Part shown: in pieces, positions 4,068 through 62,867 of the stretch
Position numbering within the stretch: the stretch's first letter is position 1
Layout: every line of letters starts with the position of its first letter
IMG/VR virus record: IMGVR_UViG_2744054962_000001
From: a virus
Taxonomy: Duplodnaviria > Heunggongvirae > Uroviricota > Caudoviricetes
Length of the DNA: 64,000 nucleotides
Direction: 5' to 3' (one strand)
Translations under genes and position numbers: made by a program
Notes under the pieces: model-generated
Databases searched by the model: none
What the model saw: the letters and a program-made list of their open reading frames with translations, nothing else
What the model was told of the DNA's origin: nothing

Positions 4068-4116
4068 GTATCTGGATAAGTAAGTACTAATTTACTATCA
4101 TTGTGGCGCTGACAGG

Positions 4117-4848
4117 ATGCTAGCGCCTACTTATTTCAAGGATGAAACAATGGGAATTAAAGCTGATATTCAGAGCTTATCTCCCTCTGCACTCATTGAG
4201 TTGTTCGTACTGGATATGTCGAACACAACTTCAGGGGGGAAGTTATTCTTCCACGCCGGAACAAACGAACTGATGCAACCGGTCGTCTGGCAAGGAGTGA
4301 CATACGAGCCGTGGCCAATCAAAGCATCAGGCTTTGACAAAACTGGCCAGGGAACGTTGCCACGTCCAAAAATTCAGGTATCGAACTTTGCCGGAACCGT
4401 CTCTGCGGAAGTTCAGGCGAACGACGATCTTGTTGGCTGCCGCATTATTCGCAAGATGACGCTGGCTCGCTTCCTCGATGCCGTTAATTTTAAAGACGGC
4501 AACCCAACAGCAGATCCAAACCAACATTTCCCGGATGAAATGTGGTTTATCGAACAGAAAACTCTCGAAACTCATCAGGTTGTCGAGTTTGAATTGTCCA
4601 GTGTGTTCGATTTGATGGGGGTGCAACTGCCGTATCGTCAGATCATTAAAAACACCTGCCCGTGGAAATACCGAGGGCCAGAATGCGGCTATACCGGTCC
4701 ATATTTCGACAAAAATAACCAGCAGACGTCTATGTCTGGTGCTGATTACTGCACAAAACGTTATGACGCCTGTAATGCGCGTCGGAATTATTTTGCCAAC
4801 GGAGTGATCCATTTTGGCGGGTTTATTGGAGCTACGCGATATGGGTAA
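4117..4848 (+). CDS. minor tail protein L-like
   Basis: 243 aa; C-terminal Cys cluster CPWKYRGPECGY...YCTKRYDAC as in lambda gpL; synteny. Confidence 0.65.
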   Translation: MLAPTYFKDETMGIKADIQSLSPSALIELFVLDMSNTTSGGKLFFHAGTNELMQPVVWQGVTYEPWPIKASGFDKTGQGTLPRPKIQVSNFAGTVSAEVQANDDLVGCRIIRKMTLARFLDAVNFKDGNPTADPNQHFPDEMWFIEQKTLETHQVVEFELSSVFDLMGVQLPYRQIIKNTCPWKYRGPECGYTGPYFDKNNQQTSMSGADYCTKRYDACNARRNYFANGVIHFGGFIGATRYG

Positions 4849-5638
4849 TAAAGCAATCCCTGAGCTTGGCTCTGATGTTATGCAGCAAATCTATCTCTGC
4901 GCCATAAATCGCTACCCTAATGAAGCGTGTGGCTTTCTGGTGAGAACTAATGGCGACAAATATCGCTTTATGGAAGCGCGAAATGTTTCGGAGAACCCGC
5001 AGAACACTTTTGTAATGCACGTTGACGACATTATGGCGGCAGAGGATGCGGGTGATGTTATCGCAATCTGGCATTCACATACTGATGAATCAGCAGAAGC
5101 ATCTGATGCCGATCGTGCAGGCTGCGAAGCGACGGAAGTTCCGTGGATGATTCTGGCTATTCGCAAGAATGTTGAGGGAGATGCCCCTTTCCATTTTAGC
5201 GAGATGAATGTGATCACTCCTGATGGTTTCGAAATGCCATACCTGGGTAGACCGTATGTATTTGGCGTATTCGATTGCTGGATGTTGTGTCGGGACTATT
5301 TGAAGCGTGAGTTTAACGTCGAGCTTAACCCGAACGCACACCTGCATATTCCATCGTGGTACACCGGCGATAACGACATTCTCGACCAGAACTACCGAAA
5401 CGAGGGATTGGTACGGCTTGCGCCTGGAACAAAGCCTCAACGTGGGGACGTCTTCTTTATTCAATACGGGAAAATGCCAGATCACTGCGCGGTTTATATC
5501 GGCGATGGAATGATTCTTCATCACCAGATCGACCGTCTTAGTTGTCGTGCTTATTACGGCGGAATGTATCAGAAACATACGACGCATCACTTGCGTCACA
5601 GAGACTTGCTCAAGGGAGATGAGACGTGTCTGAGTTAG
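4841..5638 (+). CDS. tail assembly protein K-like (MPN/JAMM plus NlpC/P60-like)
   Basis: EACGFLV and WHSHTDE (JAMM-type HxH) motifs, later Cys/His peptidase-like region; ORF track starts at 4814 but the ATG at 4841 overlapping the gpL stop is the likelier start. Confidence 0.6.
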   Translation: MGNKAIPELGSDVMQQIYLCAINRYPNEACGFLVRTNGDKYRFMEARNVSENPQNTFVMHVDDIMAAEDAGDVIAIWHSHTDESAEASDADRAGCEATEVPWMILAIRKNVEGDAPFHFSEMNVITPDGFEMPYLGRPYVFGVFDCWMLCRDYLKREFNVELNPNAHLHIPSWYTGDNDILDQNYRNEGLVRLAPGTKPQRGDVFFIQYGKMPDHCAVYIGDGMILHHQIDRLSCRAYYGGMYQKHTTHHLRHRDLLKGDETCLS

Positions 5639-6219
5639 TTCATGTGCAGCTTGGCGGCCCTATGGCCAAACATTTTGGCCGCCACTGGCATCTAAAGGTG
5701 CGCAATACAAAACAGGCTCTGGATTTAATTGAGGCCAACAAGCCTGGGTTTAAAGCATGGATGAAGCGCAATATCAAAACCTATGACCGTTACCACATCC
5801 AGATCACCAATAAACAGGGCCACAAGTGGTCTGTTGACGAAAGTGAATATCAGATGATGGGGCAGTCTGACAACATTGCCAAAATCCGCATTACACCTGT
5901 TCCGCGAGGAAGCGGTGGATCTGCTTTTGGGTGGTTTCAGACGGTAGTAGGGGCCGCTTTGTTGGTTGTATCGGCGGTAGTGATGCCTGCTTTAGCACCT
6001 CTCGGTTTGTCACTGATGATGGGCGGCATATCACAAATCATATCGCCGCAAGCCACTAACGAAAGTGTGAGACAGGCAGATAACTCGAACTCTTATTATT
6101 TCGACGGCCCTCAAAATACAGAAAACCAGGGCAACCCAGTACAACTTATCTATGGCGAGGAAATTCTGGTTGGCTCACAGGTTGTGAGTTCTTCAATCAC
6201 GATTGACCAGCTAATGTAA
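5626..6219 (+). CDS. tail assembly protein I-like
   Basis: 197 aa with hydrophobic central segment; position between K-like and J-like genes. Confidence 0.45.
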   Translation: MSELVHVQLGGPMAKHFGRHWHLKVRNTKQALDLIEANKPGFKAWMKRNIKTYDRYHIQITNKQGHKWSVDESEYQMMGQSDNIAKIRITPVPRGSGGSAFGWFQTVVGAALLVVSAVVMPALAPLGLSLMMGGISQIISPQATNESVRQADNSNSYYFDGPQNTENQGNPVQLIYGEEILVGSQVVSSSITIDQLM

Positions 6220-6230
6220 ACAAGGATTTT

Positions 6231-10490: not shown

Positions 10491-12878
10491 ATGTGGTACA
10501 GAGAAGGTACAATAAATCTCACTAAAGGAAATAAAACTGTAGTGGGAACAGGCACAGCCTGGGGAGTGACGGCGAACGGCGTCCTTCCAGGTATGATATT
10601 GATTGGCCCCGATAATAAGTTATATGAAATAAAATCAATCGAGAGTGACACTTCGTTAACTCTTGTTGAAGCCTACGGTGGCAGCACCCAAACAAATGTT
10701 CCGTGCAGAATAATTACGACCTATGAAGGTGATTTGACCCAATTTAGTGCTCGTTTTACTGCGCTTATGTCTCGCATGTCAGCCGATTCAAAAATGATGC
10801 GTAGTTGGCTGACTGCTGTGGATGAAATAACAATTGAGCGTGAAGATGGCACGGAATTAACCGTAAAATCCCTTACGCAGATCGTTAATGAGCACAATGA
10901 GAACCTAGAATGGTATAAAGAAAATACTCCCATAATTAACACCGCTGCACAAAAAGCTAAAGAGGCGGCAGCGAGCGCAACAGCGGCCAAAAAATCAGAA
11001 ACTAACTCAAAAGCGAGTGAGACAGCTTCAAAGACTAGCGAAACTAATGCGAAAAATAGCGAGGTAGCTGCAAAATCGAGTCAGAGTGCTGCCGCAAACT
11101 CCGCTACCGCAGCAAAAAACAGCCAGGATGCAGCAGCCGAAAGCGAGAGTGCTGCAGCTGGTTCTGCGACTTCAGCAGCTGGATCAGCAACTGCTGCGGC
11201 TAACAGCCAGAAAGCCGCGAAGACGAGCGAAACTAACGCAAAGTCCAGCCAGACGGCAGCGAAGACCAGCGAAACAAATGCCAAAGCCAGCGAAACTGCG
11301 GCGAAAAACAGTCAGGATGCAGCAGCCCAAAGCGAGAGTGCCGCAGCTGGTTCTGCAAGTGCGGCGGCTTCTTCTGCCTCTGCATCAGCCAACAGTCAAA
11401 AAGCTGCAAAAACCAGTGAAACCAACGCAAAGGCGAGCGAGACTGCGGCGGCTAACTCAGCGAAAGCATCGGCAGCAAGCCAGACGGCTGCAAAAGCAAG
11501 TGAAGACGCAGCCAGAGAGTATGCAAGCCAGGCTGCGGAGCCGTATAAACAAGTTTTGCAGCCGCTTCCCGATGTGTGGATACCGTTTAACGATTCACTG
11601 GATATGATTACGGGCTTTTCGCCGTCATATAAAAAGATTGTTATTGGTGATGATGAAATAACGATGCCTGGCGATAAGGTTGTAAAGTTTAAACGCGCAT
11701 CAACTGCCACATATATCAATAAATCAGGCGTATTTAGTGTTGCTAAAATTGATGAGCCACGATTTGAAAAAGAAGGTTTATTGATTGAAGGACAGCGCAC
11801 TAACTATTTTGTTAAATCCAATATCCCCGCTGAATGGACGAGTACCAGCAATATCGATAAAACTAATAATGGTGTTGATGAATTTGGTTTTTCATATGCC
11901 AAAATGCGAACAAAAGATAATATGACAGGACAATCATCTGCACTTAGTCTGCATACATGCAGTGCATCCCGGGGGATTGATGTTAGTGGCGATAATAAGT
12001 ATTGCACTGTTTCATGCAGGGTTAAAGCTCCTGATGGTCTTCGTTGTCGTTTGCGTTTTGAAAAATACGATGGGTCGGTTTATACATTTTTAGGAGATGC
12101 TTATTTAACTTTCGGAACTCTGATAATAGAAAAAACTGGCGGAGCAGCCAATAGAATAGCAGCTACTGCAACTAAAGATCCGGTTACAGGGTGGATTTTC
12201 TATGAGGCAACTATAGAAGCTGTTGAAGGTGAAACCTTAATTGGCGCAATGATTCAGTATGCGCCGAAAAAAGGTGGTGTAACTGAAGCGGGAGATTATA
12301 TTTACCTTGCAACACCACAATTTGAAAACGGCGGATGTGCTTCATCTTTTGTTATTACGACAACTGTACCCGCAACCCGCTCCAGTGATATGGTGACGAT
12401 CCCAACTGAAAATAATATCTATAATAGACCGCTTACGTGCCTGGTCGAGGTTAATAGAAATTGGGGCGATATTCCTCCTAATGTAGCACCGCGTATTTTT
12501 GATTTTTCTGGTGTGCCACCTATTGAGTCAATTACATACGCTTTTAACACAACTGAGAAATATTACGGTCAGCTTTATATGCAAACTTATAAAGCGTCGA
12601 CAAGTACTTACGTTTCTAGTGTGTTTGCTGGTCGAACTGATGTTCGAAAATTCATTGGTGGTTTTAATATTTATTCTGATGGTACTAAACGAGTAGTTTC
12701 TAACGGTGAGGCTACTAAAACCATGAAAACGGAGTGGACGGGCGTAAAAACACGGACCTTTATTCGAATTGGAGGTCAAGCCACATCGGGAACTCGTCAT
12801 CTATTCGGCCATTTGAGAAATCTTCGTCTCTGGCATAAAGAATTAACTGATGCGCAAATGGGGGAGAGTATTAAATGA
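10491..12878 (+). CDS. side tail fibre protein (Stf-like)
   Basis: 795 aa; long degenerate tandem repeats AAKxSETNAKxSExAA resembling the lambda Stf repeat region; distinct C-terminal domain. Confidence 0.65.
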   Translation: MWYREGTINLTKGNKTVVGTGTAWGVTANGVLPGMILIGPDNKLYEIKSIESDTSLTLVEAYGGSTQTNVPCRIITTYEGDLTQFSARFTALMSRMSADSKMMRSWLTAVDEITIEREDGTELTVKSLTQIVNEHNENLEWYKENTPIINTAAQKAKEAAASATAAKKSETNSKASETASKTSETNAKNSEVAAKSSQSAAANSATAAKNSQDAAAESESAAAGSATSAAGSATAAANSQKAAKTSETNAKSSQTAAKTSETNAKASETAAKNSQDAAAQSESAAAGSASAAASSASASANSQKAAKTSETNAKASETAAANSAKASAASQTAAKASEDAAREYASQAAEPYKQVLQPLPDVWIPFNDSLDMITGFSPSYKKIVIGDDEITMPGDKVVKFKRASTATYINKSGVFSVAKIDEPRFEKEGLLIEGQRTNYFVKSNIPAEWTSTSNIDKTNNGVDEFGFSYAKMRTKDNMTGQSSALSLHTCSASRGIDVSGDNKYCTVSCRVKAPDGLRCRLRFEKYDGSVYTFLGDAYLTFGTLIIEKTGGAANRIAATATKDPVTGWIFYEATIEAVEGETLIGAMIQYAPKKGGVTEAGDYIYLATPQFENGGCASSFVITTTVPATRSSDMVTIPTENNIYNRPLTCLVEVNRNWGDIPPNVAPRIFDFSGVPPIESITYAFNTTEKYYGQLYMQTYKASTSTYVSSVFAGRTDVRKFIGGFNIYSDGTKRVVSNGEATKTMKTEWTGVKTRTFIRIGGQATSGTRHLFGHLRNLRLWHKELTDAQMGESIK

Positions 12879-14264: not shown

Positions 14265-14284
14265 ATAGGTAAGTGCATACCTAT
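14265..14284. promoter_or_regulatory. palindromic element ATAGGTAAGTGCATACCTAT upstream of lysis cassette (member of a recurrent family)
   Basis: 7-bp perfect inverted arms ATAGGTA/TACCTAT; the same architecture recurs upstream of many genes in this window. Confidence 0.5.
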
Positions 14285-19161: not shown

Positions 19162-19332
19162 TTTAATTACCTGTTTCTGTATATAAATAATAAGTAACTT
19201 ATTAAATATATATACGGAAGCAGGTCTTTTAAAAGACACCCACCAGAACAACTCCCTTCCGTTTCCACTTCCAAAAACTGCCACCAGTCGCTATCATCCG
19301 CTCATTGTGATAAGTAAGTAACTACCTACCAG

Positions 19333-20082
19333 GTGAGCCACATGAGCCAAATCTTTTTCGATACCATCGACAACAACCAGTACGACTTCATGACAGAGTG
19401 GAATACCGCTGTTATGGACAAGTGGGTTGCTGAAAACATTGGTTTGTCGCGCTGTAAAGACGAGGCTGAACTCTTCGAGACGAAGTGGTTTGATTATCGC
19501 GACATGCATCCTCTCATGGCCACCTGTCTTTTTACGGAGGCATACAAACGTCAGTACTCAAATATCATGCTGACGCACGGTCGCGAACACTTTGAAACAG
19601 CTCCGTTCACCACCGGGTTAAAACGTCTGCCTTATCAGGAGTTGTCGACTGCCAACAAAACGTCGCTATGGAAAGCACGCCAGTTTGCGGATCGCTATTG
19701 CTGCTCATACGACTACTTTATCTCCACCGTTCTTTCCGCAGCTGCACGACGGCTGTGGGACAAGCTGCCGCGCCCACAGCATTTGTGGCAGCCAGAACTG
19801 ATTGAGATATTTGAAGAGAAATTAGCCAGACGCGCAACAACCCGTCTGGATGACTCTCTGGTTAGCTTTAAGCATATGGGAGACATGCAGTTCAACCCGA
19901 TTCAGGAAAGCTATTTTGAGTGGATTCTGGAGCGTTTGCGCACCATCCCTCGCAGTAAGCGCATACGCGCAATTTTCTCCGCTATCTGGCTAATGGAAAT
20001 CGTTCCAGAGCGCCTTATTTCCGCCCACTTTCCAGAAGAACTGGAAGAAGCACGGCGGTTTATTGATCCCCTATCTAATTAA
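19333..20082 (+). CDS. hypothetical protein upstream of helicase (possible helicase loader/replication accessory)
   Basis: 249 aa, no recognisable motif; function guessed from position only. Confidence 0.3.
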   Translation: MSHMSQIFFDTIDNNQYDFMTEWNTAVMDKWVAENIGLSRCKDEAELFETKWFDYRDMHPLMATCLFTEAYKRQYSNIMLTHGREHFETAPFTTGLKRLPYQELSTANKTSLWKARQFADRYCCSYDYFISTVLSAAARRLWDKLPRPQHLWQPELIEIFEEKLARRATTRLDDSLVSFKHMGDMQFNPIQESYFEWILERLRTIPRSKRIRAIFSAIWLMEIVPERLISAHFPEELEEARRFIDPLSN

Positions 20083-20125
20083 CTAATACTAGAAAACAAT
20101 TTGTTTAAAAAACAAAGGAAAGCAC

Positions 20126-21466
20126 ATGACCGAACTTTGCCATACAGGACGCGGGCTGTCCGAAGAGTTTGATGAAGATTTCCAGAACAGACTGACGGCA
20201 TATTTTTGTCGTGATCACGAGTTTCTTACTCGTGCGGGAGATCTGGTTGTGCCTAGCCAATTTGCCAATGCGGCCAATGCCATATTGGTTAATATGGTTT
20301 CGGGCTATTACCGTATGTACAAGAGCGCGCCCTCTTCATCTGCAATTCTGGATATGCTTAAGCGTGCGAAACGCGATAAGACTATCCGTGAGGAACTATT
20401 CGCCGATGTTGTTGCTGCGTTTAAGCGCATCCTTGCAGAAAAATTGTCCGATACCTCGTACATGGTTGACCAGGTATCAACCTTCGCAAAAAGCGTAGCG
20501 TTTGATGATGCTCTGATTAAGGCTGCTGAACTGAAAGAGAAAGGCGACTTTCAGGGGGCGATGGCAATCATGGCCAAGGTTCAGCAGATTGGATCGAACG
20601 AAGCGACCGGAATCTATGACTACTACACCTCCGCAAGTGAGCGATTGAAAGCGCGTGAATATGAGGCTTCAGAGGAGTATGTACCAAACAGTATTACAAC
20701 TGGACTCCCTCTTCTCGATAGGTTGCTGTACCAAAAAGGCTGGGCAAAGCGCGAAATGGTGCTCTTCATGGGGTTCGCTAAATCCGGTAAATCGACCGCA
20801 ATGGGTGAGTTTTCCATAAACGCAACGCTTGCTGGCTACAATGTTCTGTATCTCTCGCTGGAGGTTCACACCACCATTTTATCCGACCGTTTTGATGCAA
20901 GATTGTCGGAGACGGAAATGTCCAAGCTGGTGGAACGGCGCGATGAGGTTCATCGTAAGTTGGCAGAGTTGGGAGCCACGAAGGGGATTGGTAGTTTGTG
21001 GGTTGTTGAGCGTCCGTCAGGAAGTATGTCACCGGCAGACCTGGATCGTATGCTTAACAGCATGAAAGCCAATGGCATGGTGCCTGACATGGTTGTTGTC
21101 GACTACGCAGATTTGATGCGTGCCAGTTATGACCTTCGTGATGATCGCGCCAACATTCGTAGTATCTACACCGATTTACGTGCTCTTTATGACAAGCATA
21201 ACGTTGCTGGTATCACGGCGTCGCAAACAAACCGTGAAGGTGGCGCGTCAGAAGTTGCCACAATGATGCACGCTGCCGACAACATCGAAAAAGTACGTAT
21301 TGCTGACCTGGTAATAACGATCAACAAAACCGAAGAAGAAGAAGCGAAAGGAGAGGCTCGTCTCTACTTTGCTGGTTCGCGTAACCAGCAGGGAGGGATC
21401 AGCATTCGCGTTAAACAAAACCTCGAACAAATGCGCTTCATTGAGCGAATCTTAGACGTTACCTAA
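20126..21466 (+). CDS. DnaB-like replicative helicase
   Basis: RecA-fold C-terminal domain with Walker A GFAKSGKSTAM and DnaB-like following motifs (VLYLSLEV, VVVDYADLM, ASQTNREG). Confidence 0.75.
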   Translation: MTELCHTGRGLSEEFDEDFQNRLTAYFCRDHEFLTRAGDLVVPSQFANAANAILVNMVSGYYRMYKSAPSSSAILDMLKRAKRDKTIREELFADVVAAFKRILAEKLSDTSYMVDQVSTFAKSVAFDDALIKAAELKEKGDFQGAMAIMAKVQQIGSNEATGIYDYYTSASERLKAREYEASEEYVPNSITTGLPLLDRLLYQKGWAKREMVLFMGFAKSGKSTAMGEFSINATLAGYNVLYLSLEVHTTILSDRFDARLSETEMSKLVERRDEVHRKLAELGATKGIGSLWVVERPSGSMSPADLDRMLNSMKANGMVPDMVVVDYADLMRASYDLRDDRANIRSIYTDLRALYDKHNVAGITASQTNREGGASEVATMMHAADNIEKVRIADLVITINKTEEEEAKGEARLYFAGSRNQQGGISIRVKQNLEQMRFIERILDVT

Positions 21467-21547
21467 AAAATAAGCGTGGAGAACACCTCCACGCTTGATT
21501 CATTGGTGAAACAACTTTTCTTTTGCCAAACCACAAAAGAAAAACAC

Positions 21548-22729
21548 ATGAGCCTTTATGTTATATCAACATTTAGGTTGGTCACAATATTGCCTGTTAA
21601 AAGTGGAATTATCGTGAGCGAGCTGAAAGAGCTAATTACCGAATTAGATTTTGAACAATGGTTGGATACTGAAGGTATCGTTTATCGACGTGGAGGCGTG
21701 AGTACTCGCGGTCGTGAAGTGAATATCAAGGAGTGTCCGGTATGCGGCAGCTCCAACTGGAAGGTATATTTCAATCTGACCAGTGGCGTCGGTAAATGCT
21801 TCGCTGGTGATCATCCCGAAGAGATTCAGTTCAATAAGCTGGTCTTCCTCAAGCACTACAGCGGTAAATCACGACGACAGTTCGAGGAATATGTGCAGAA
21901 CGCTCTTCTTTCCCAGGGGTGGGCACCAAAGAAAGAAGAGATAGTGCTTGCAAGCACAGTCGAGTTAGAGGGACCAGTTGCACTCCCTCGTCATTACGAT
22001 CTTCCTATAGATGGCCATCTTCCAGACTATCTGGTTGAACGAAATATATCGCCTGAAATGGCAAAGTATTTTGACCTACGATACTGCGTCGAAGGCAAGC
22101 ACGCTTATGTAGATCCGTATACAGATCAGGTTAAAGGACAGATTTTCGATATGCGAATACTGATACCGGTTTACGATCTGGATGGGGTAATGAAGACATT
22201 TCAAGGACGAGACATTACCGGTACAGCAGAACGCCGCTACCTCTTCCCTATGCAGCTGCCGGCGTCGGGTAAGTTTCTCTACAACGGCCACAACGCAGTC
22301 GGGAAACAAACAGTCGTTGTGTGTGAAGGGGCATTTGACGTAATGGGCGTGAAGCGAGCCATCTTCGACGAAAAGACGCTGAGGGATTATGTAGAGCCAA
22401 TTGGCACGTTCGGGATGCACTTGTCCGGAAATATGAATGAGGACGCTGAAGATCAGTTGGGCGCGTTCCTGACGCTCAAGGCGCGTGGATTACGCAACGT
22501 CATCATGATGTGGGATAGCGAGAAGCAAGCGATCCGCAACACCATGTCGGCGGCCAAACGCCTCACCAGCATCGGACTAAATGTCAAAGTGGCCTGTCTG
22601 GGCGAAGAAGGTCTCGACCCCGGCGACGCGACGCCAGAGCAGATCCTCAAAGCCTATTATCGTGCCAAGCCTTACTCCAAACAGCTGGAGTTAAAATGCA
22701 AAGTGCTCGGTATCAAGTCACTCGTGTAG
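21548..22729 (+). CDS. DNA primase (zinc-finger plus TOPRIM)
   Basis: CPVCGSSNW...CFAGDH zinc-binding motif, TOPRIM-like VVVCEGAFDVMG; start chosen at Met preceded by the conserved AAAGAAAAACACATG motif (track ORF starts 21476). Confidence 0.6.
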   Translation: MSLYVISTFRLVTILPVKSGIIVSELKELITELDFEQWLDTEGIVYRRGGVSTRGREVNIKECPVCGSSNWKVYFNLTSGVGKCFAGDHPEEIQFNKLVFLKHYSGKSRRQFEEYVQNALLSQGWAPKKEEIVLASTVELEGPVALPRHYDLPIDGHLPDYLVERNISPEMAKYFDLRYCVEGKHAYVDPYTDQVKGQIFDMRILIPVYDLDGVMKTFQGRDITGTAERRYLFPMQLPASGKFLYNGHNAVGKQTVVVCEGAFDVMGVKRAIFDEKTLRDYVEPIGTFGMHLSGNMNEDAEDQLGAFLTLKARGLRNVIMMWDSEKQAIRNTMSAAKRLTSIGLNVKVACLGEEGLDPGDATPEQILKAYYRAKPYSKQLELKCKVLGIKSLV

Positions 22730-22730
22730 T

Positions 22731-23828
22731 TTAAGTTGTGGGAGACAGACGGTTCAGGACAAACGCTGCGATATTATTTAGTGCTATATTTAGCAAACTT
22801 GCATCATATGTTTGGTCGTTATCCTTAGGTTTAAAATTGCTGATACTGACTGTCTCACTGTGCTCATTTTCATAGAAACGTTTACTGCTTGAATCTAGGC
22901 GTTTGAGGACGTAAATTTGCCCAAATTCAATCCACTCACCTTCACCATTGAGTCCGCTCCCTGTTTTGACTGAGATGAAGTACTTTGCCAGCTTGGTTGT
23001 AATGCAGTCTTCATTTTTTTCTATGCAAACCTTAATGCCGGCGGCTTTCAAACTACGATAAATGCTGTTTGGATATGCCCCACTATAGATTTCGCTGCTT
23101 TCAATGATAATGACGTCGTATTCTTCCTTTGGCTCAATAGATAAAGCTTCAGGCTCCAAATCATCCTTGTGAAAAATAAATCCTAAAAGACGCTCAAGTT
23201 CATCTGTTAATTTGAACATGGGGTTCGCTTGGATCTCGCCAGCCCTGTCTTCGTAGACGAGCCCCGAGGTTATGAGCTTATTTAGCGATCTCAGAGCCAT
23301 TCCACTTTTTTGTGATGTGAGGCTAACTTGGGCTAATACAGTTGATTTATAGCCTTTTATTGGCGAGCTTGTTGTGATGTAAAGTTTGCGCGCATATTCA
23401 ATATCAAAGCAGGTTAACCCACTCAGTATGTGGATAAAAAATAGTTTTTCATCGTCGTTAAGGCTGCTGCGGGCTAGGCTTACCGTCAAGCGAATGTAGT
23501 ATTCTGTTTTCTTGTCTTCATCATCAAGCACGAGCTTTTTGACTAACGCCGAAAAGTGTTCTCTTGAGATATCGACCTCATCGTCGCAAATTTCACCAAT
23601 GCCCATAATGTAACGGTTGAATCGATCACGACAAGTCGTCGCATTTATCTCTGAGAACAACGTGAACATTTTTTCCGCTGCCTCAATATGAGGTCCAACA
23701 AGCGGTATAGATTTGGCAAACGCCAAACCAGTTTCTTTCAATACCTTCCTGTGTTGCATCACGTTTTTGGACAACGTTGTCATAGACCTAAGCCTTGTGT
23801 GTTTAACGTATGAGTTAAGTGAAATCAT
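22731..23828 (-). CDS. hypothetical protein, reverse-strand AT-rich orphan
   Basis: 365 aa ORF convergent with primase gene; no recognisable catalytic motif by eye. Confidence 0.45.
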   Translation of the reverse strand: MISLNSYVKHTRLRSMTTLSKNVMQHRKVLKETGLAFAKSIPLVGPHIEAAEKMFTLFSEINATTCRDRFNRYIMGIGEICDDEVDISREHFSALVKKLVLDDEDKKTEYYIRLTVSLARSSLNDDEKLFFIHILSGLTCFDIEYARKLYITTSSPIKGYKSTVLAQVSLTSQKSGMALRSLNKLITSGLVYEDRAGEIQANPMFKLTDELERLLGFIFHKDDLEPEALSIEPKEEYDVIIIESSEIYSGAYPNSIYRSLKAAGIKVCIEKNEDCITTKLAKYFISVKTGSGLNGEGEWIEFGQIYVLKRLDSSSKRFYENEHSETVSISNFKPKDNDQTYDASLLNIALNNIAAFVLNRLSPTT

Positions 23829-23966
23829 ATAGAAGTGACCTGACAGCTACAACTGGACAAGATTAAGAGCATTTTTTATAAACGAAAATAAACGCCTACA
23901 TTGATAAGTAGATACATACTTATATTTCTGTAAGAATATGCTCGACGAAGGAATTGAGGAACCTTT

Positions 23967-24761
23967 ATGAAAGCAGATATTCAGAAGTCCGTTACCGAAA
24001 TCATCGACAAATCAGGCGTAGAAATTGATACAGAAGAGCGCCAGAAGATTATCGATGAGGCGATCCAGACTGCGCTGGAGCACATCGCCACGTCTGTGAG
24101 CACCGCACCTCTTTCGGAAGGCTCGAAATACATGCGGGTCTGGGTTCGTTTTGGGGAGTCCCCGGAGCTGCCTGGTGTTAAACAGAAACGCGCGGCACTC
24201 GTGGCGTTCACTCGCAAAATGAAGGACGCAACGGTCGAAGTACGCGCCGGTGCATGGTACGACGGTCGCGTTGTCTACACCAATCAGGCAGTGTGCGATG
24301 AAGGTGAACGGTTTGAGGAAATTGTCGACGCGACTCTTCGCGCGATCAAAGGCAGGGCTGGCGTAGAGGATGATCCTTCTATCGCGGCGTTCCTGAGCAT
24401 TGTCGAACTGCCTGAAGTTACCGAACGCGTTACAGATCTGACAACCCCACCTGGTTTGCTGGAGTTGGTGGTCAGTGGCGATACCAAAAAAGCCGTTGAG
24501 CGCATTCGTGAGGTGGAATACGGCATCATCTGCGATATGTGCCGCAGCGACTTAGACCTGGTGCGCATCATTGTCGACGCGGGTCAGACATGTGACGGTG
24601 TGCTCGCCAGTTTTGCAGGGCAGGTGGCACGCCTGGCCAACGAGCTGCCGATGATTAAACAGGAGGCAAAATCCTACGCCGTCCACCATGCCAACGATTT
24701 ACTGGAACCATACCGGTTCGAAGCCGCTCAGGACAAAATGACTGGCTGGGCTACCTGGTAA
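23967..24761 (+). CDS. hypothetical protein
   Basis: 264 aa acidic protein, good codon usage, followed by terminator. Confidence 0.4.
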   Translation: MKADIQKSVTEIIDKSGVEIDTEERQKIIDEAIQTALEHIATSVSTAPLSEGSKYMRVWVRFGESPELPGVKQKRAALVAFTRKMKDATVEVRAGAWYDGRVVYTNQAVCDEGERFEEIVDATLRAIKGRAGVEDDPSIAAFLSIVELPEVTERVTDLTTPPGLLELVVSGDTKKAVERIREVEYGIICDMCRSDLDLVRIIVDAGQTCDGVLASFAGQVARLANELPMIKQEAKSYAVHHANDLLEPYRFEAAQDKMTGWATW

Positions 24762-24764
24762 GCC

Positions 24765-25307: not shown

Positions 25308-25341
25308 AAACTCCCGAGCGACCGATGGAGGTTAAACACTA

Positions 25342-27475: not shown

Positions 27476-28253
27476 AAACATATCGATAAGTATTTACTTA
27501 CTTATCCTTTGTGTATAAGATGACTTTGTTTTCGTTGAGACGCGACTGTTTGAACTTAAATACAAGTGCAAACGAAGAAGTCTATCTGGCAGTAGCCTAA
27601 TAAGCCAAACACCAGCGAGGTCAGTTTCCAGCCTCGTTACCGAAATGGGACACACTGAGCGAGTGTGATTGCAGAACGCAGGAGGGAACATTCATGTTCC
27701 CTCCGATGAAGTAACAGAATGGGCGGTTGGTATATTTTCAACTCCATATGACTCCCGGATTCTTAGCCACTGACCGCCCATCCTGTTACGTCATTTTGTT
27801 CAATTATGTCGTTTATACTGGGTTAAAAAGCGGCGACGTAGCCCGGCTGGTATGGTTAGCCAGCACACAACGTTGAGGCCATTACATTTTTATCAATTCT
27901 AAGGTTCTATTCACAGAGATACCGGCGAGCGTTGATATGTAACATGTTGGGCAAACATTCAATCGGAGTAGTGGCCTCAACGTTGTGAAGACGGGATTGT
28001 TGTGTAGGTTTAACCACTGTTGCCATTGGTGCCTGTTTTCACAACAAATGATTCCATACATCACATTGTATAAATTACAAAGTAGGTGCTGTCCTCAGAA
28101 ACATCATCTACTTAAAGATTTTGCCTTCTACTATTGAGCGAAGTCGAAAGCGTCTGGCACTAACGAAAAGTGCAAGTAGCGGTGCGTTTCATGGCAGAAA
28201 CTAAACCGTCGCGATTGGCACTGTTGAGTAATAAATACTGGCAGTGCTGAATT

Positions 28254-28328: not shown

Positions 28329-28330
28329 AT

Positions 28331-30321: not shown

Positions 30322-31425
30322 ATGAAAAATAGCTTTGACAGAGCACGCGCTGCGGAGAACACCTCAAAAGAGGCGATTGAGTATCTCGAAAGAGCATCTC
30401 AAATGCAGGCCGTTATGATCTCCCAGGTCAGCAATGACATGAGATTCTCGGACGCATTCATGTTATTCACTCGCTTATCTCTGCTGATAACCAGACGTCG
30501 GCCAGAGATCGCTGTTCATTGTATTTTGATACATGTTTTGCCGCACATTGCCGATGTAAAAGTAAGTGACATTAATAGGTTCATGGTGAACCAACTGGTC
30601 AACCCACTAATACTGGATGGCAAAATTGTTATGGGCCGCCGCGTTTTCTCTCTGATGAAGCAGTTCCTTAGCTGGTGCGCCTTCCAGGGGATGATAGACG
30701 TGTCACCGTTAAACGATATGTCACTTAACAAAGTTGCCGGTGGCGCAAAGCCCACACCTCGCGAGCGGAAGCTGACCGACGCAGAGGTATGGGTGTTCTG
30801 GAATATATGGGACTACTTCAATGTGTGTGCTGGTACAAAATGGGCGGCCAGGCTATGTCTTGTATCCGCAAGACGACCTGACGAAGTACTGCGGGCTAAA
30901 AAAAGTGAGTTCAATCTTAAGCGTGGGGTTTGGAATCAAGGCAAGAGGAACAAATCTGCCCGTGAGCATTCTCTGCCTTTAAGCTCATTAATGCGCACTT
31001 GTATTGAAGAGTTGTTCGAATATGGTAAAGACAGCCAGTGGCTCGTGCCTTCGAATAAAAAAATCGGGAAAGACCTTCCTATGTCTAAAGTGGCAATAGC
31101 CCAGGCATTACGTCGTATTCTGGAACGACCAGAACTGATGGAGCTTGAGCCATTTACACCCCGAGATTTGCGCCGTACTGCGCGTAGTTACTTCCCAGCA
31201 TTAGGCATAAGCCAGGAGGTATCACGTAAAATCATGAACCACAGTCTTGAGGGGATAGATCGGGTCTACGACCGGCACGATTATATGGACGAGATGCGAG
31301 ACGCCTTAGAAAGTTTCTCGACGTACATCGCATCAATCGTAGAGCAACCGGATTTAGACGAAATTGACCACAAATTCAAGGGAGATCGTCTATCAACAGA
31401 GCTTATTCGTGTAAATTTTTCATAG
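30322..31425 (+). CDS. tyrosine site-specific recombinase (Cre-like, no arm-binding domain evident)
   Basis: catalytic-domain pattern: ...SARRPDEVLRAKKSEF...HSLPLS...RDLRRTARSY...MNHSLEGIDRVYDRHDY (R, H-x-x-R, terminal Tyr region). Confidence 0.75.
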   Translation: MKNSFDRARAAENTSKEAIEYLERASQMQAVMISQVSNDMRFSDAFMLFTRLSLLITRRRPEIAVHCILIHVLPHIADVKVSDINRFMVNQLVNPLILDGKIVMGRRVFSLMKQFLSWCAFQGMIDVSPLNDMSLNKVAGGAKPTPRERKLTDAEVWVFWNIWDYFNVCAGTKWAARLCLVSARRPDEVLRAKKSEFNLKRGVWNQGKRNKSAREHSLPLSSLMRTCIEELFEYGKDSQWLVPSNKKIGKDLPMSKVAIAQALRRILERPELMELEPFTPRDLRRTARSYFPALGISQEVSRKIMNHSLEGIDRVYDRHDYMDEMRDALESFSTYIASIVEQPDLDEIDHKFKGDRLSTELIRVNFS

Positions 31426-31806
31426 AGACTTTATGGCCTCAACAACCTTTTGTGATGCGCCTTTCTCTTTACCGAATCGCTCGTTATATGCAGCAAGAAC
31501 CTGTTTTTCGTCCTCGTTAAGAGGAGCAGTGCCTTCTTTGTATAAAAATGCTGCGAGTTCGGGTTGGCGTTCTTCCAGCACCATCATCATAAGACGACTT
31601 GGCTCAATACCCAGTGCCAGCGCCAGCGGACGAACCTTATCGATAGGCAAAGGAATTTTGCCGCTTTTAATTAAAGAAAGGTTGTTGGCGTTTTTATACC
31701 CAATTGTTTTGGCTATCTGGGCCTGGCTCATAGGTGAGGATTCAATCAACCCTGCGATAAAAGCAGCGTAGCGACTTTCTATAAATTCAATCTTGTTATC
31801 AGACAT
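31420..31806 (-). CDS. HTH (XRE-like) transcriptional regulator, candidate repressor
   Basis: 128 aa, helix-turn-helix at MSQAQIAKTIGYKNANNLSLIKSGK; convergent with recombinase. Confidence 0.55.
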   Translation of the reverse strand: MSDNKIEFIESRYAAFIAGLIESSPMSQAQIAKTIGYKNANNLSLIKSGKIPLPIDKVRPLALALGIEPSRLMMMVLEERQPELAAFLYKEGTAPLNEDEKQVLAAYNERFGKEKGASQKVVEAIKSL

Positions 31807-32057
31807 GGTTACAACCTTTGCGCGTTCAATTCTCTCTGGTAAGTGCTTACCGATATTACATCAAAGGTTATGGTTGTAAAGCTATTATCATTTTTTTCGA
31901 TAGGCACTTAAAAGACCGGTTAAAGGCCATTGCACGGAGAAAAATTAGCCAAAAATAGGTAAGAAAATCAACTTGCATATGATATGAATGTATTCAGTAT
32001 TGATACAAATTTTAGTAGTATTCCTTACCATAGTATAAGTTAGAATGGATTGATTGA

Positions 32058-34477: not shown

Positions 34478-34572
34478 ACAAAACAGCCTTAACGATAAGT
34501 AACCACTTACGATAGATAATGATATATTTATATAAGAAGTTGAACGCTCATTAGAAAACAAAGGAAAAACGC

Positions 34573-39495: not shown

Positions 39496-39500
39496 TAAAG

Positions 39501-41878: not shown

Positions 41879-41995
41879 TTTTTGATAGATAATAAGTAAG
41901 TACTGATCTATCATTTAACAGCTCGAAAGAGCCACGAATGAACGAAAGCCCAACGCGCATAGCGCCATCGGCCAAATCACAACAAGGAGAAACAC

Positions 41996-43024
41996 ATGTC
42001 TAAGACATTACTTGATTTGCTTAACAAAACTCGTGAAGACATTGCCGCCAAACGTGGTAACAACGTTGATCTGACTCGCTTAAAAGACGGCGTCAACTAT
42101 ATCCGCATCTTCCCGAATAAAGACGACCCAAACGGTAAGTTCTTCCAGACTTTCGGTATGCACTACGTTAAGTATCAGAACGAGGAAGGTAAAGAAGCAA
42201 CCAACGCTTATATTTGTGAGCAACATACTCACGGTCGCGCTTGTCAGCTATGCGAAATGGTGATGGAAGGTCGCGCTCGTCACAAGGGTAACAAAGCAAT
42301 GGAAGAACGCATCGGTCAAATGCGTGCCACTCCTCGCTACCTGGTCAACGGCATTCTTTCTGCTCGTGAGGATTTCGCAGATGCTGAGAAATGCCAGTTA
42401 ATCGAGCTGCCGTCTACTGTATTCGATGATATCTGCAAAGCAATCACCGAAGACATCGCTGATGATATCGGCAATCCACTGAGCAAAGAGGAAGGCTACG
42501 CATTCCTGATTAAACGTACTGGCTCTGGTCGCGATACCAAATATGACGTCTCGCCTAAGCGTAAAGTCTACAAAGGCGATATCGAAGATAAATTCTGGAA
42601 CACCCAGCATGATCTGATCGCATACGCAAATCAGGCTGATGAAACTCGTCTTCTGTCGACAGTTCGCACTATGGGTCGTCTGATTGGCATCGCTGCACCA
42701 ACTGCCGCAGCATCTGCACCAGCAATTTCCTCAACCGCGAAAACATCGGCTGCGGCACTACCTGGATTTGGCTCTGTCACTGGTCATACAGAAGGAGCGA
42801 CGGCTGTAGCAACCGCGCACACACCGGCTTCTGAACCAACCAGTCTGGTTGATGAAGAAATCCTCCGTGCCGTTGAAACTGAATTTAAACCAGAGGCAAG
42901 TTCCGCTGCCGTTGCCGTATCAGTCAAAGAGTCTGAAGCAGTCGCAGCGACATCTGTAGCAACCGCATCTGCGACGGAAGATGAAGGTCTGGATGACCTA
43001 CTGAGAGAGCTGGACTCTCTGTAA
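41996..43024 (+). CDS. ssDNA-binding protein (T4 gp32-like)
   Basis: NYIRIFPNKDDPNGKFFQTFGMHYV and CEQHTHGRACQLC resemble gp32 core and zinc-site pattern; acidic Ala/Ser-rich C-terminal tail. Confidence 0.5.
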   Translation: MSKTLLDLLNKTREDIAAKRGNNVDLTRLKDGVNYIRIFPNKDDPNGKFFQTFGMHYVKYQNEEGKEATNAYICEQHTHGRACQLCEMVMEGRARHKGNKAMEERIGQMRATPRYLVNGILSAREDFADAEKCQLIELPSTVFDDICKAITEDIADDIGNPLSKEEGYAFLIKRTGSGRDTKYDVSPKRKVYKGDIEDKFWNTQHDLIAYANQADETRLLSTVRTMGRLIGIAAPTAAASAPAISSTAKTSAAALPGFGSVTGHTEGATAVATAHTPASEPTSLVDEEILRAVETEFKPEASSAAVAVSVKESEAVAATSVATASATEDEGLDDLLRELDSL

Positions 43025-46666: not shown

Positions 46667-46729
46667 ATCTCTTGAAAATATATAAGTGCTTACTTATTAT
46701 TTTCACATAACAACCACATAGGAAAACAC

Positions 46730-48612: not shown

Positions 48613-48827
48613 GTTTACAGTAAAATTTATATAAGTTGGTATCTACCTATCATGAAGATTTTTATTGAATACTTGTTACTCATCGTTTCAATAGCTTTTG
48701 TCATCGACTGCATTTTCACTGGTGTCATTCGTAAAGTCTTTTCCCCGGTGCACGACGTAGTCATAAACGCTTTGGCTATCGTGCTCGTATTTAATTCAGC
48801 ATTTGATGTAATCAAAGAGGTGGCAGC

Positions 48828-49863: not shown

Positions 49864-50919
49864 CTATTTGCGAGTCTTTGCCTTGCGCAACTCTTCGAGA
49901 AGCGCCAGTTCTTCTTTACTCAACATGACCATTTTGCCTTCTTTTTCGTCAGGCACAACGTCGATAATGTCATCTTGATTCTCATCTGGGAGGCTATATT
50001 CCGTCTCATCATTATCGATTTTTGTTGATATTTGTGCCTGGCGTAACTTTGGCCGCCTATAGTGGATGATGAAGTAGACCGAGTTTCCGCGCTTAACTTC
50101 CGTGTAATCGAGATATCCTATCTCTCGCAGCTGTTCCATAGCCTTTCTTACCGTCGCATTCTGAGTAATAGTGCGACTTGTCAGATTAAGTCTGGCGCGT
50201 AAACGAGCTAGTGATATTGGTGCCGGATCAGGCGGCAAACTTTCAATAAAAGTATAAAGCGCCTGAGCGGATTCTTTTCTTGAGAGTTCGTTTATAGCCC
50301 GGAGTTGCAGAAGAACCTTTTTGTCGAACTGGTAGAGTTCGAAAATCTTGGGATCTGCTTTCAGTTCGACCGTATCGTGCTTGACACTATATTTTGCCGT
50401 TTGCACAAGATGCGTTACGTAAAACTCATCAGAGCCTTTGCTACGGAACGAGATGGTATTTGTGGCAATACGGCTTAGCGAACTGTCCAGGCGTTTGCGT
50501 AACTTCGCTGATGACCTGGCGGTCGGAATGCCACACAGCCTTACAAACTCAACGAACGGCAACGTGACAGTATCGCCAACGACCTTGTGTTTGGCAAACG
50601 CGTGGATTATTCCCACCCACGTTTTAAAGTCGTTATCCATATCAAGCCGAAGGCCAGAGATCCTTATGTCTTCGTACCCTTCGGCTTTTGCCAGAGACAG
50701 CTGTTTGAGTTCAGCAGAGGCATCCATAGAGACCATTTGCCCCTTTCTTCCTCTGGATGTCGATTTCAGCGTCGGAACGAAGAGGCCCAGACGCATCAAA
50801 GCAACAGGCTGAACAGTGTTATTAGTGTTAGGAACCAACGTAACAACTTCGCCTGTCTTTTTATCTGTTTCTGAAAATGCTTCAACGATCGCTATGTTTT
50901 TATTGCCGTTTTCGCTCAT
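49864..50919 (-). CDS. repA: plasmid-type replication initiator RepA
   Basis: 351 aa; gene flanked on both sides by iteron arrays and upstream DnaA box, the classic iteron-replicon layout; protein identity not searched. Confidence 0.55.
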
Positions 50920-50939: not shown

Positions 50940-51600
50940 CGACGGCTTTGGTGGCCTTTGCTGATTACAGTGGATAGTAGCACTCATCACAGCGGTTATC
51001 CTACCGTCTATAGTGGTTTTTCTCCTCTCTATAGTGGTTGCTTTGCTCCCTATAGTGGATTATTCGCTCTCTATAGTGGATATCGATCATGTCTGAAGGC
51101 AGATGGCGCAACGGTTTGAGGTGGGCGGGGATCTTATTGGGTCTTTATGGGTCTCTTTGGTTCTCTTTGTGATCTGAATTACTGGATCGGGCCTGTGGAT
51201 AAAATCAGAGGATTTCAAGAACAGGTAACTCTACTCTTCTGTGGATATTTAAGGACATAAGAATCATGACTAAGAGTAGAGTTTAAAATATATCTATGTA
51301 TATCAGTATGTTAATGAAGAATTAAGTCATTAAGTTATCCATAAAAGACAATGTGCTCTACTCTCTACAGTGGATATATACAGCTCTCCAGAGTGGTTGT
51401 TTTACTCTTCATAGCGGTTATTCAGCTCTCTACAGAGGTTTCTTTGCTCTCCATAGTGGATGGCAACACCCTTTCAGACCAGTAACCGCAACGGCTAGAG
51501 GCGATCGGGGATCTCTTTGGATCTTCTATTTGATCTTACTTGGGATCTCTTATTTGGATCTATCCAGTGGATAACTGGGATAAGTAAAACAGGCAAATGC
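50940..51600. other. candidate plasmid origin: iterons at about 21-22 bp spacing, DnaA box, AT-rich segment, GATC cluster
   Basis: repeats CTCTATAGTGGWT at roughly 51006, 51027, 51049, 51069 and 51362-51455; TGTGGATAA (DnaA box) near 51193; GATC-rich stretch 51500-51560; AT-rich 51240-51350. Confidence 0.55.
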
Positions 51601-53357: not shown

Positions 53358-53583
53358 CGTCAGTTCTCCTTTTTCGTTTGGTTGTCATCATTAAGTGACT
53401 GCGATTATAGAGTGGCTTGTAACATCTAGAAGTCTTTGCTGTCCATAAAAATAGGTATTCACTTACCTATTAATTTGCCATAATCATGTGTCTGTGAACA
53501 TTCTTAATGGCCGTGTTATCTGGATTGTTCGCCTCTCAAACACACTTAATATCTGTATCAAAATAACCACAAAGGAAAAACAC

Positions 53584-58127: not shown

Positions 58128-58200
58128 TTTCATTGATAGGTAAGTGCTTATCTATTAACATGGGCCACTATATTTAGTGGCCCTCTTTATTTGGTGATAC

Positions 58201-61842: not shown

Positions 61843-62712
61843 ATGAACTTTACCAAACTGACTGACCACCTGAAACTTGCCACCGATCGACTCATTGGAT
61901 TTAAGCCAGAACCATATGAGTTGCATGAAGGCCATGGTGTAGCCACTGAAAGTATTTACAAGATGGTCGATCAGTTTCATGAACTCTTCCAGCATCCGAG
62001 ACGCGTTATGCCGACACCAGAGCTGCTTCGTCTCCGTGCAAGCCTGATTCATGAAGAAGCTGTAGTGGAAGGTATTCCAGCCGCAATGAATGGGGATATT
62101 GAGCAACTGCTGGATGCAATGGCCGACTTTTTATACGTTGGTGTTGGTACGATGGTCGCCATCAAAGGTGGTATTTCTACCGGCATGACCTATTACACGC
62201 AGGAACAGAGCATTGATCGCTTTATGCAGACAATTTTTGTGCCCGGTAACACTGTTTTCGATGATATGGCAATGCCATTTCAGGAAGCTCGTGAGGCGTC
62301 ATGTATGCTCGAAGAGCTGGCAGATAAACTTGAGAAGAAGACTGTTAAGGATTCTGAGCTGATTCAGGAACTGCGCCGTGTAATGAACAAAATCTATGTG
62401 GCGTGCATGATGACTTATCGACTGGCTGATTTCCTCGGTATCAATGTCGTCGAGCTGGTTGGCGAAATTCATCGGTCTAACATGACAAAATTATGGCCTG
62501 CTGATGTTGAGGAACGTCGCCAGGCTGTGGCCAACTGCAAATACGACTCTTCAGATCTGGGATTCCGCCATGCTGATGGCACCGATAAGATGATCGGTTT
62601 TCGAATTTCCGATGGAAAGATTCTGAAGTCTCCAACCTATAGTGATGTCGATTTATCCTCCTTTGTTGAGCAAGCTAAAGCCTCAGCAATGTACGGAATG
62701 ATCAAAAAATAA
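61843..62712 (+). CDS. MazG-like NTP pyrophosphohydrolase domain protein
   Basis: EEAVVEG...DIEQLLDAMADFLYV pattern (EExxE / D-rich helices); start at internal Met MNFTK with AGGAACAAAACTAGCATG context (track ORF starts 61645 overlapping nrdB). Confidence 0.4.
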   Translation: MNFTKLTDHLKLATDRLIGFKPEPYELHEGHGVATESIYKMVDQFHELFQHPRRVMPTPELLRLRASLIHEEAVVEGIPAAMNGDIEQLLDAMADFLYVGVGTMVAIKGGISTGMTYYTQEQSIDRFMQTIFVPGNTVFDDMAMPFQEAREASCMLEELADKLEKKTVKDSELIQELRRVMNKIYVACMMTYRLADFLGINVVELVGEIHRSNMTKLWPADVEERRQAVANCKYDSSDLGFRHADGTDKMIGFRISDGKILKSPTYSDVDLSSFVEQAKASAMYGMIKK

Positions 62713-62779
62713 TTGTAGGTAGTTATCTATCTGTGTATATTTAACATGCGTAATAAAACTCTGGAATGACTATTCGTTT

Positions 62780-62806
62780 TGGTGGCCTATGGCCACCATT
62801 TTTTTA
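62780..62806 (+). terminator. rho-independent terminator
   Basis: TGGTGGCC-tat-GGCCACCA then TTTTTTT. Confidence 0.7.
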
Positions 62807-62851
62807 TCTGTCTGGTCTTGTTCTCTCAATGAATGTAAACTCACACGATGA

Positions 62852-62867
62852 ATAAGTAATTACTTAT
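62852..62867. promoter_or_regulatory. perfect 16-bp palindrome ATAAGTAATTACTTAT upstream of thyA-like gene (recurrent element family)
   Basis: self-complementary; same arm sequence family as other intergenic palindromes in the window. Confidence 0.5.

Follow-up and report, generated by a model that had tools for sequence, protein, structure and literature searches.

The 64,000-nucleotide (nt) stretch of the virus record IMGVR_UViG_2744054962_000001 analyzed here (the window, to which coordinates refer unless a genome is named) belongs to an SSU5/pHCM2-type phage-plasmid, in which a 20-bp palindromic element recurs in the gaps between genes. On comparative grounds, we propose that these elements are probably the dispersed operators, or “stoperators”, of the lysogeny repressor of this family, the most likely candidate for which is the helix-turn-helix (HTH) protein encoded at 31420-31806. 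The closest relative of the window is Escherichia phage Cyrano (pLF82), and its gene order comprises tape-measure, tail, lysis, par, replication, recombination and nucleotide-metabolism genes.

The element was first described, in a first-pass annotation of this DNA, by the pattern ATARGTA-N6-TACYTAT. This has four exact matches in the window and 16 with up to two mismatches, against 0.33 expected from dinucleotide shuffles, confirming that its frequency lies above that of a shuffled AT-rich background. A symmetric position weight matrix (PWM), trained on 57 distinct sites from the family, recovers 12 peaks of at least 20 bits (the strong sites; Table 1) and 18 of at least 8 bits, against 0.0 and 0.47, respectively, in 60 Markov shuffles, and the scores in the window are bimodally distributed. 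The enteric consensus is the 20-bp palindrome ATARGTAAGT/ACTTACYTAT (ATAAGTAAGT/ACTTACTTAT), and the core AGTAA...TTACT is invariant across the family sites. All 12 strong sites are intergenic, though coding sequence occupies 88% of the window, and each lies upstream of plus-strand genes. The recurrent palindromic intergenic element is thus borne out, as is, for the most part, the claim that it sits tens of bp ahead of start codons: the strong sites lie 1-84 nt 5' of the next plus-strand start codon, with the exception of the one at 27486, which precedes a tRNA cluster by about 750 nt. The site list of that annotation stands for the 12 strong copies, with coordinates mostly within 0-4 bp of ours (the one given as 41884 is 8 bp off, the true start being 41892), whereas two of its entries are weak or degenerate, the one at 34495 having just the left arm and the one at 62716 scoring 10 bits. 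The perfect 16-bp palindrome that it reported at 62852-62867 does exist, with 2 bp and not 6 between its arms. The list was also incomplete: among the weaker copies in the window is a core copy at 31835-31854, on the promoter of the HTH gene, that it had missed.

Symmetry of the sites and their promoter-like contexts

The same annotation had offered an element-specific promoter family as a second explanation, to which we add sites for an activator of the lytic cycle. Here, the palindrome would stand in for the -35 element or occur alongside it, for which the P1 Lpa-dependent late promoters and the T4 MotA boxes provide models. About five of the 12 strong sites do coincide with plus-strand sigma-70-like promoters, with the palindrome filling the spacer, as against one on the minus strand; a -10-like hexamer is seen at about +28 to +35 at several others, and the position of all sites 5' of plus-strand genes would also suit this explanation. 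However, the flanks of the sites contain no conserved column at any fixed distance, and forward promoter scores do not differ from mirror-image ones (Wilcoxon p = 0.30-0.49). Moreover, a promoter would not fit at several sites, these being 1-17 nt from the start codon or, in Cyrano and SSU5, inside the 26-bp terL-portal gap; several others run straight into terminator-like hairpins, and the virulent phage nickie has the same lytic gene layout without the motif. Promoter activity was hence not upheld as a general property, since just a subset of the sites is promoter-like and these lack directional asymmetry, and we consider it unlikely to explain the element. The remaining seven of the 12 sites have no sigma-70-like promoter, which is a trait of the stoperator type.

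Being palindromic and likely to be transcribed within operons, the elements could instead be nucleic-acid structures, either RNA hairpins functioning in processing or termination or DNA cruciforms. This explanation we reject as extremely improbable: in every variable column, the complementarity between the arms equals that expected from independence (P = 0.24-1.0), the stems are AT-rich and loopless, and no T-tract follows the palindromes. The arms therefore vary independently, as expected of protein half-sites and not of a hairpin. The sites also score equally on both strands and have no asymmetric orientation with respect to transcription. With neither a general promoter geometry nor covariation of the arms, the trait that the sites share is therefore that of a symmetric protein-binding site.

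As a separate observation on promoters, sigma-70-like matches are depleted in the 20001-40000 interval of the window, where 11 are found against 30.6 +/- 5.4 in shuffles.

Conservation of the array and lineage-specific motif variants

The array is found at orthologous gaps in Cyrano, SSU5, pHCM2, the Yersinia pestis plasmid pMT1 and two types of Klebsiella elements. At the strict cut-off, Cyrano has 18 sites, SSU5 21, Klebsiella pJN2-26 20, the second Klebsiella type (kp2) 26 and pMT1 16. For instance, the site at 10428 has orthologues at 22448 in Cyrano and 21937 in SSU5, and the shortened palindrome at 62852 corresponds to a regular 20-mer in SSU5 (72511). More distant relatives retain the inner core of the enteric motif with different outer bases: the Acinetobacter relative has 35 sites with the consensus ATTAGTAAGC/GCTTACTAAT, and the Aeromonas relative 30 with the consensus ATCAGTAAAT/ATTTACTGAT. 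Nickie, a syntenic Pseudomonas phage with a portal protein about 50% identical, has no dispersed motif by gapped-palindrome counts and a repeat finder, and it has no HTH homologue either.

The variants of the motif sort by phage lineage and not by host genus, even within a single host genus; the second Klebsiella lineage, for example, has a shifted motif in which column 3 is A in 90% of the sites and column 8 is split between A and G. Within the elements, the sites are restricted to the co-directional lytic block and are essentially absent from the accessory and maintenance region at about 85-105 kb.

The HTH protein as the candidate repressor

Fifteen Cyrano proteins, comprising regulator candidates and controls, were scored for their presence across eight genomes, and the Xre-type HTH protein is the sole one that tracks the motif array. 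It occurs in every motif-bearing lineage except SSU5, a deletion derivative (see below), and is missing from the motif-less nickie. The ParB-like, FljA-like and Cra-like proteins, along with CYRAN_37 and CYRAN_123, were rejected as binders because their presence or absence does not follow that of the motif. A binder other than the HTH protein, such as the Cro-like open reading frame (ORF) or a partition or compaction protein, might use the sites as dispersed centromeres or in DNA organization; precedents are the dispersed palindromic centromere sites of the plasmid-prophage N15 and the KorB operator sites of RK2. In keeping with this, the element encodes a ParA and two ParB_N proteins, and the operators could be expected to serve a Cro-like partner as well. 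However, ParB-like proteins and TerS are present in the motif-less nickie, the ParA homologue is missing in pMT1, which keeps the array, and the FljA-like protein is missing in Acinetobacter. Further, the Cro-like ORF was undetected in kp2, Acinetobacter and Aeromonas at E <= 1e-4, and the confinement of the sites to the lytic block also argues against this alternative, making such a binder improbable.

The HTH protein, which is 100% identical to the “putative repressor” CYRAN_45 of Cyrano, is encoded by a gene that belongs to the syntenic core of the family. Homologues were found in 995 plasmids, with counts per genus that parallel those of the portal gene (HTH/portal: Klebsiella 348/341, Escherichia 230/204, Acinetobacter 154/145, Enterobacter 92/91, Yersinia 63/62 and Salmonella 49/49). 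Only 12 phage records are portal-positive. Its gene adjoins that of the integrase in the enterobacterial records among the matches listed, and the Acinetobacter and Aeromonas homologues adjoin a cobT-like gene. The predicted recognition helix, KNANNLSLIKSGK, is the same in the window, pHCM2 and pMT1, which have a common motif, and both the helix and the motif are different in Acinetobacter and Aeromonas. Changes in the helix parallel the variation of the outer bases and of columns 3 and 8 between lineages, a tentative parallel drawn from only about five lineages, among which enteric HTH proteins that are 48-66% identical share nearly one motif.

The absence of the gene from SSU5 could suggest that the HTH protein is dispensable, but a comparison with pHCM2 rejects this. 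SSU5 differs from pHCM2 by a clean 7.5-kb deletion at SSU5 position ~42642-42673, with flanks that are 95-97% identical, which takes out phoH, grxA, the integrase gene, the HTH gene and the switch region; it is thus a deletion derivative of a family to which the gene is core. This deletion fits with the isolation of SSU5 as a lytic phage.

The region upstream of the HTH gene is in keeping with its candidacy. The core copy at 31835, which begins 1 nt past the -10 element of the predicted HTH promoter, could thus function in autoregulation or as the operator of the switch; Klebsiella pJN2-26, pHCM2 and pMT1 preserve it, while the remainder of the spacer diverges. An operator-like site at the HTH promoter or switch region is a feature of the enteric lineages, and the Aeromonas relative has a site 60 bp 5' of its HTH gene. 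The divergently transcribed ORF at 32058, which heads the early cobT-cobS-dnaE block, has homologues in pMT1 and pJN2-26 and is Cro-like by position only. Taken together, core synteny, co-occurrence with the array, the site at its own promoter, a motif that follows the phage lineage, the SSU5 deletion and expression in the lysogen (see below) favor this protein. The suggestion of the first-pass annotation, that one dimeric regulator, perhaps this HTH protein, represses globally while the element is a plasmid, thereby gained indirect support from the comparative tests that were run.

Between cobS and dnaE, the enteric elements have just an ORF of 67-69 aa, at which location the Acinetobacter plasmid p5626 (17847-18512) has an annotated gene for a sigma-70-family sigma factor.

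Resemblance to SlmA-binding sequences

The absence of the HTH protein in SSU5, with its ~21 sites, and the sharing of the motif by pJN2-26, despite an HTH protein that is just 56% identical, led us to suspect a host factor. The sites could be SlmA-binding sequences (SBSs), a dense array of which would recruit the host nucleoid-occlusion protein SlmA, either for the silencing of promoters or for a coupling of plasmid or phage DNA to FtsZ and division control. SlmA half-sites follow the rule GTRAGY, with some inner positions accepting any purine or any pyrimidine (PMC3020112), and the 20-bp SBS consensus oligonucleotide GTAAGTGAGCGCTCACTTAC corresponds to GTAAGTGAGC/GCTCACTTAC (PMC4423959). This consensus is in register with that of the phage-plasmids, to which it is identical at 14 of 20 bases, and the inner differences fall at the positions tolerating any purine or pyrimidine (PMC3020112). 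The phage PWM, in turn, detects three validated SlmA oligonucleotides, the SBS consensus (SBScons, p = 5e-5), SBS17 (5e-5 to 6e-4) and SBS12 (0.012), in the exact register, and column 9 of the family sites is a pyrimidine in 99% and column 6 a purine in 93%. No TetR or SlmA homologue encoded by the element was found, which leaves no such phage protein as a binder.

When judged by the full rule GTRAGY/RCTYAC, with the G, T, A and G at positions 1, 2, 4 and 5 being critical, the phage consensus fits completely and individual sites keep 5-8 of the eight critical inner positions, with most retaining 6-8. The rule is strictly obeyed by none of the 12 strong sites and at just one place in the window, GTRAGYRCTYAC at 31839-31850, on the repressor promoter. 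This match is preserved in Klebsiella pJN2-26, and pHCM2 and pMT1 retain the core site with the base at one critical position changed.

Against this identification, the most conserved columns of the motif (T1, A2, G4, T5 and A6) differ from those critical for SlmA; the SlmA-critical A and G in columns 7 and 8 are conserved in just 71-75% of the sites, and the outermost base is A and not G. The G in column 8 has drifted, being kept by 44% of the sites in the second Klebsiella type and by 38% in Aeromonas (58% A); Klebsiella SlmA is 95-96% identical to that of E. coli. The motif variants follow the phage lineage inside one host genus, and chromosomal SBSs are mostly intragenic and outside promoters, unlike the intergenic sites seen here. 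The array is equally present in Acinetobacter, in which we know of no SlmA; Aeromonas presumably has one. Our scan of genome contigs for SlmA matched only near-identical enterobacterial genes. Given that the array follows the phage lineage, that the HTH protein is core to the family and that SSU5 is a deletion derivative, SlmA was demoted as the main binder, a role that we regard as quite improbable.

A subsidiary role is still rather unlikely, but deserves to be spelled out: the plasmid might act as an SBS-like array that recruits SlmA to serve as a co-repressor, to compete with the phage repressor at the switch, or to link cell division with plasmid segregation or the amplification of lytic DNA. 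Competition at the switch is conceivable because the only strict SBS of the window sits on the repressor promoter. In terms of density, there would be about 20-25 SBS-like palindromes per 105-kb plasmid copy as against 24-52 on the 4.6-Mb chromosome.

Proposed mechanism and expression in the lysogen

Returning to the HTH protein as the putative repressor, we envisage that a dimer would occupy each palindrome, with one monomer per half-site. The copy over the start region of its own promoter would provide for autoregulation and for control of the early rightward operon. At about five copies in the window, which lie in the spacer or the -10 element of sigma-70-like promoters, binding would repress by promoter occlusion, whereas at the remaining copies, in short gaps without room for a promoter, the bound repressor would most likely act as a roadblock or insulator in the manner of a stoperator. 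Jointly, these sites would silence the lytic array, ~85 kb of co-directional genes, for as long as the element is a plasmid and would stop read-through from units that are active in the lysogen, such as the par operon. We infer each of these steps, namely binding by the HTH protein, repression by binding and the block to elongation at non-promoter sites.

The published transcriptome of the Cyrano lysogen (LF82; S1 table) is in keeping with this proposal, with an expression value of 96 for the repressor gene as against 5-15 for the plus-strand lytic genes (PMC9928086). The genes of the par operon have values of 50, 89 and 55, followed by 6 past the Cyrano site 31296 (the orthologue of the window site at 19310), a drop of about ninefold; similarly, CYRAN_64 at 31.5 is followed by 7.5 past the Cyrano site 63199 (the orthologue of 53451), a drop of about fourfold 5' of sbcD (PMC9928086). 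These drops across two sites are compatible with a putative block to elongation, but are suggestive only. At the first of them, no plus-strand terminator is predicted in the window.

Several points weigh against the proposal. HTH variants with just 48-66% identity use almost one motif, which the conserved recognition helix would account for, without proving it. SSU5 retains full-strength sites without the HTH protein, an array that a recent deletion would explain but that fits equally with a second function or a second binder. A roadblock beside a terminator-like hairpin would seem redundant, and CYRAN_34 is expressed (44) directly 3' of a strong site (PMC9928086). The consensus fits the SBS of the host. 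Finally, the 128-aa HTH protein has no recognized dimerization or cleavage domain, no homologue of solved structure and a weak match to a Pfam HTH profile.

The lysogen data also draw attention to two further loci. A 184-aa protein of unknown function encoded at 29500-30054 on the minus strand (phrog_28788) is a homologue of CYRAN_43, which has by far the highest expression in the lysogen (~7000 versus 5-15 for the lytic genes) and was undetected in the other family genomes tested. The window has a cluster of tRNA-Asn, tRNA-Thr and tRNA-Ser genes at 28254-28501, and the antisense ORF CYRAN_40 is probably scored as “expressed” in the Cyrano lysogen because of tRNA reads.

Comparison with known systems

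The kind of control proposed here is already known, but we found no description of an operator or repressor for the SSU5/pHCM2/pMT1 family in the literature searched, nor any details of regulation in SSU5-type elements in a recent phage-plasmid review. KorB of the IncP plasmid RK2 is a global silencer acting at about a dozen dispersed palindromic OB operators, some of them distant from promoters. It resembles the present case in that a single plasmid-encoded protein (here a putative one) serves dispersed palindromes, but KorB is a ParB-family CTPase, and the ParB_N proteins of this family do not track the motif. The C1 repressor of the phage-plasmid P1 likewise acts as a master repressor over scattered operons of a plasmid-prophage, through more than 15 dispersed operators. 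Unlike the sites described here, the P1 operators are 17 bp long and asymmetric and are located at specific promoters, where a C1 monomer binds; C1 does not belong to the Xre type, and the structural operons of P1 are not punctuated by an array of sites. The conserved inverted repeats (CIRs) of the Streptomyces phage phiC31 form a ~17-20-bp palindromic operator at many dispersed intergenic loci that is bound by a single phage repressor, which is the arrangement we propose here, but the phage, host and repressor family are unrelated, and phiC31 integrates into the chromosome whereas these elements are plasmid-prophages. The E. coli SBSs share the 20-bp palindrome in the same register and half-sites overlapping with a 4-bp phase, but have a different conservation profile; the sites here are all intergenic and their motif drifts with the phage lineage.

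Like the sites of this family, the gp71 stoperators of the Cluster A mycobacteriophages, such as L5 and Bxb1, number 20-30 and occupy short gaps between genes throughout the early and late lytic operons (PMC6550527). As in our array, few of them are promoter operators and most lie away from promoters; their motif variants co-vary with the lineage of the repressor, as those of this family may also do, and some Cluster A members, like the elements of this family, replicate extrachromosomally (PMC6550527). The L5 sites differ in being 13-bp, asymmetric and oriented with transcription, as opposed to 20-bp palindromes without orientation, and the repressor here would be not gp71 but a 128-aa Xre-type protein of a siphovirus-plasmid of Gram-negative bacteria. 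An elongation block of the L5 type is, in our case, one that we infer only.

Features of the window

Other than the elements and the switch region collected in Table 1, the window has further repeats. Direct repeats of a 21-bp period (CTATAGTGG...) occur in four copies at 50987-51079 and three at 51388-51459, 5' of the minus-strand repA (49864-50919), and are probably replication iterons. A second small palindrome, AGAAAACAA-N-TTGTTT, is found at 16867, 20094 and 47827, 20-50 nt 5' of the start codons of parA, a helicase gene and the ORF at 47856, with a variant at ~32334; enteric genomes of the family have 9-18 copies, and the Acinetobacter and Aeromonas relatives none. It could be the site of a second regulator or a translational operator. 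At least five genes share a near-identical translation-initiation block, AAAGGAAAAACACATG (21529, 34554, 48318, 53565 and 60604), and the tail-fibre gene contains, at 11016-11504, five copies of a 27-nt coding repeat (AGCCAGACGGCAGCGAAGACCAGCGAA-like) at spacings that are multiples of 21.

Table 1. Palindromic elements and features of the switch region in the window (scores are PWM bits; a period marks features without strand)
Feature	Coordinates	Strand	Context
Strong palindrome ATAAGTAAGTACTAATTTAC	4076..4095	.	Between tail M and tail L genes; inside spacer of sigma-70-like promoter TGGATA-17-TATCAT (4073-4101), then GC hairpin; 24.6 bits
Strong palindrome ATAGGTAGGTACTAACTTAA	10428..10447	.	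Between tail J and tail-fibre genes, then GC hairpin; 23.4 bits
Strong palindrome ATAGGTAAGTGCATACCTAT	14265..14284	.	50 nt 5' of holin gene; exact pattern match; 29.0 bits
Strong palindrome ATAAGTAAGTAACTACCTAC	19310..19329	.	Boundary of par operon and replication genes, 12 nt from next start codon; 26.0 bits
Strong palindrome ATAAGTAGATACATACTTAT	23904..23923	.	43 nt 5' of ORF 23967; exact pattern match; 26.0 bits
Strong palindrome ATAAGTATTTACTTACTTAT	27486..27505	.	~750 nt 5' of tRNA-Asn/Thr/Ser cluster; exact pattern match; 28.3 bits
Candidate repressor gene, 128-aa Xre/CI-type HTH protein	31420..31806	-	Pfam HTH_19 (weak), phrog_8
Core-only copy TCTGGTAAGTGCTTACCGAT (14-bp palindrome GGTAAGTGCTTACC)	31835..31854	.	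Begins 1 nt past -10 of HTH promoter
Predicted sigma-70 promoter of HTH gene, TTTACA-16-TAATAT	31853..31880	-	Block conserved in Klebsiella, pHCM2 and pMT1
Isolated half-sites ATAGGTAAG (31956-31964) and CTTACCATAG (32024-32033)	31956..32033	.	Flank likely rightward early promoter region
Small ORF, 70 aa	32058..32270	+	Divergent from HTH gene; phrog_2627, unknown function
Weak/degenerate copies ATAAGTAACCACTTACGATA and ATAGATAATGATATATTTAT	34495..34531	.	Between cobT and cobS; 14.9 and 15.3 bits
Strong palindrome ATAAGTAAGTACTGATCTAT	41892..41911	.	5' of gene for gp32-like single-stranded-DNA-binding protein (SSB); inside sigma-70-like TAGATA-17-TATCAT; 26.2 bits
Strong palindrome ATATATAAGTGCTTACTTAT	46678..46697	.	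Directly 3' of terminator; inside TTGAAA-17-TATTAT, the best sigma-70-like promoter among the sites; 25.9 bits
Strong palindrome ATAAGTTGGTATCTACCTAT	48631..48650	.	Last base 1 nt 5' of ATG; 21.4 bits
Strong palindrome ATAGGTATTCACTTACCTAT	53451..53470	.	5' of SbcD-like gene; exact pattern match; 26.3 bits
Strong palindrome ATAGGTAAGTGCTTATCTAT	58136..58155	.	Between ruvC and nrdA; inside TTGATA-17-TAACAT; then terminator-like hairpin 58162-58183; 28.9 bits
Weak copy GTAGGTAGTTATCTATCTGT	62715..62734	.	10.0 bits
Strong site, perfect 16-bp palindrome ATAAGTAATTACTTAT	62852..62867	.	Spacing 4 bp shorter; 15 nt 5' of thyX start 62883

Implications

The family is widespread in the clinic and covers pHCM2 of Salmonella Typhi, the plague plasmid pMT1 and hundreds of phage-plasmids, some with resistance genes, from E. 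coli, Klebsiella, Enterobacter and Acinetobacter. With the motif of the putative operators defined and a candidate repressor named, its lysogeny switch becomes directly testable. Phage SSU5 may be lytic because the gene for this candidate repressor has been deleted, and the variants of the motif and the recognition helix would predict immunity groups. The resemblance to SBSs offers a cheap experiment with a large possible payoff, if true. More generally, the system would be a Gram-negative, palindromic counterpart of the mycobacteriophage stoperators and may be useful in the study of genome-wide silencing by roadblocks.

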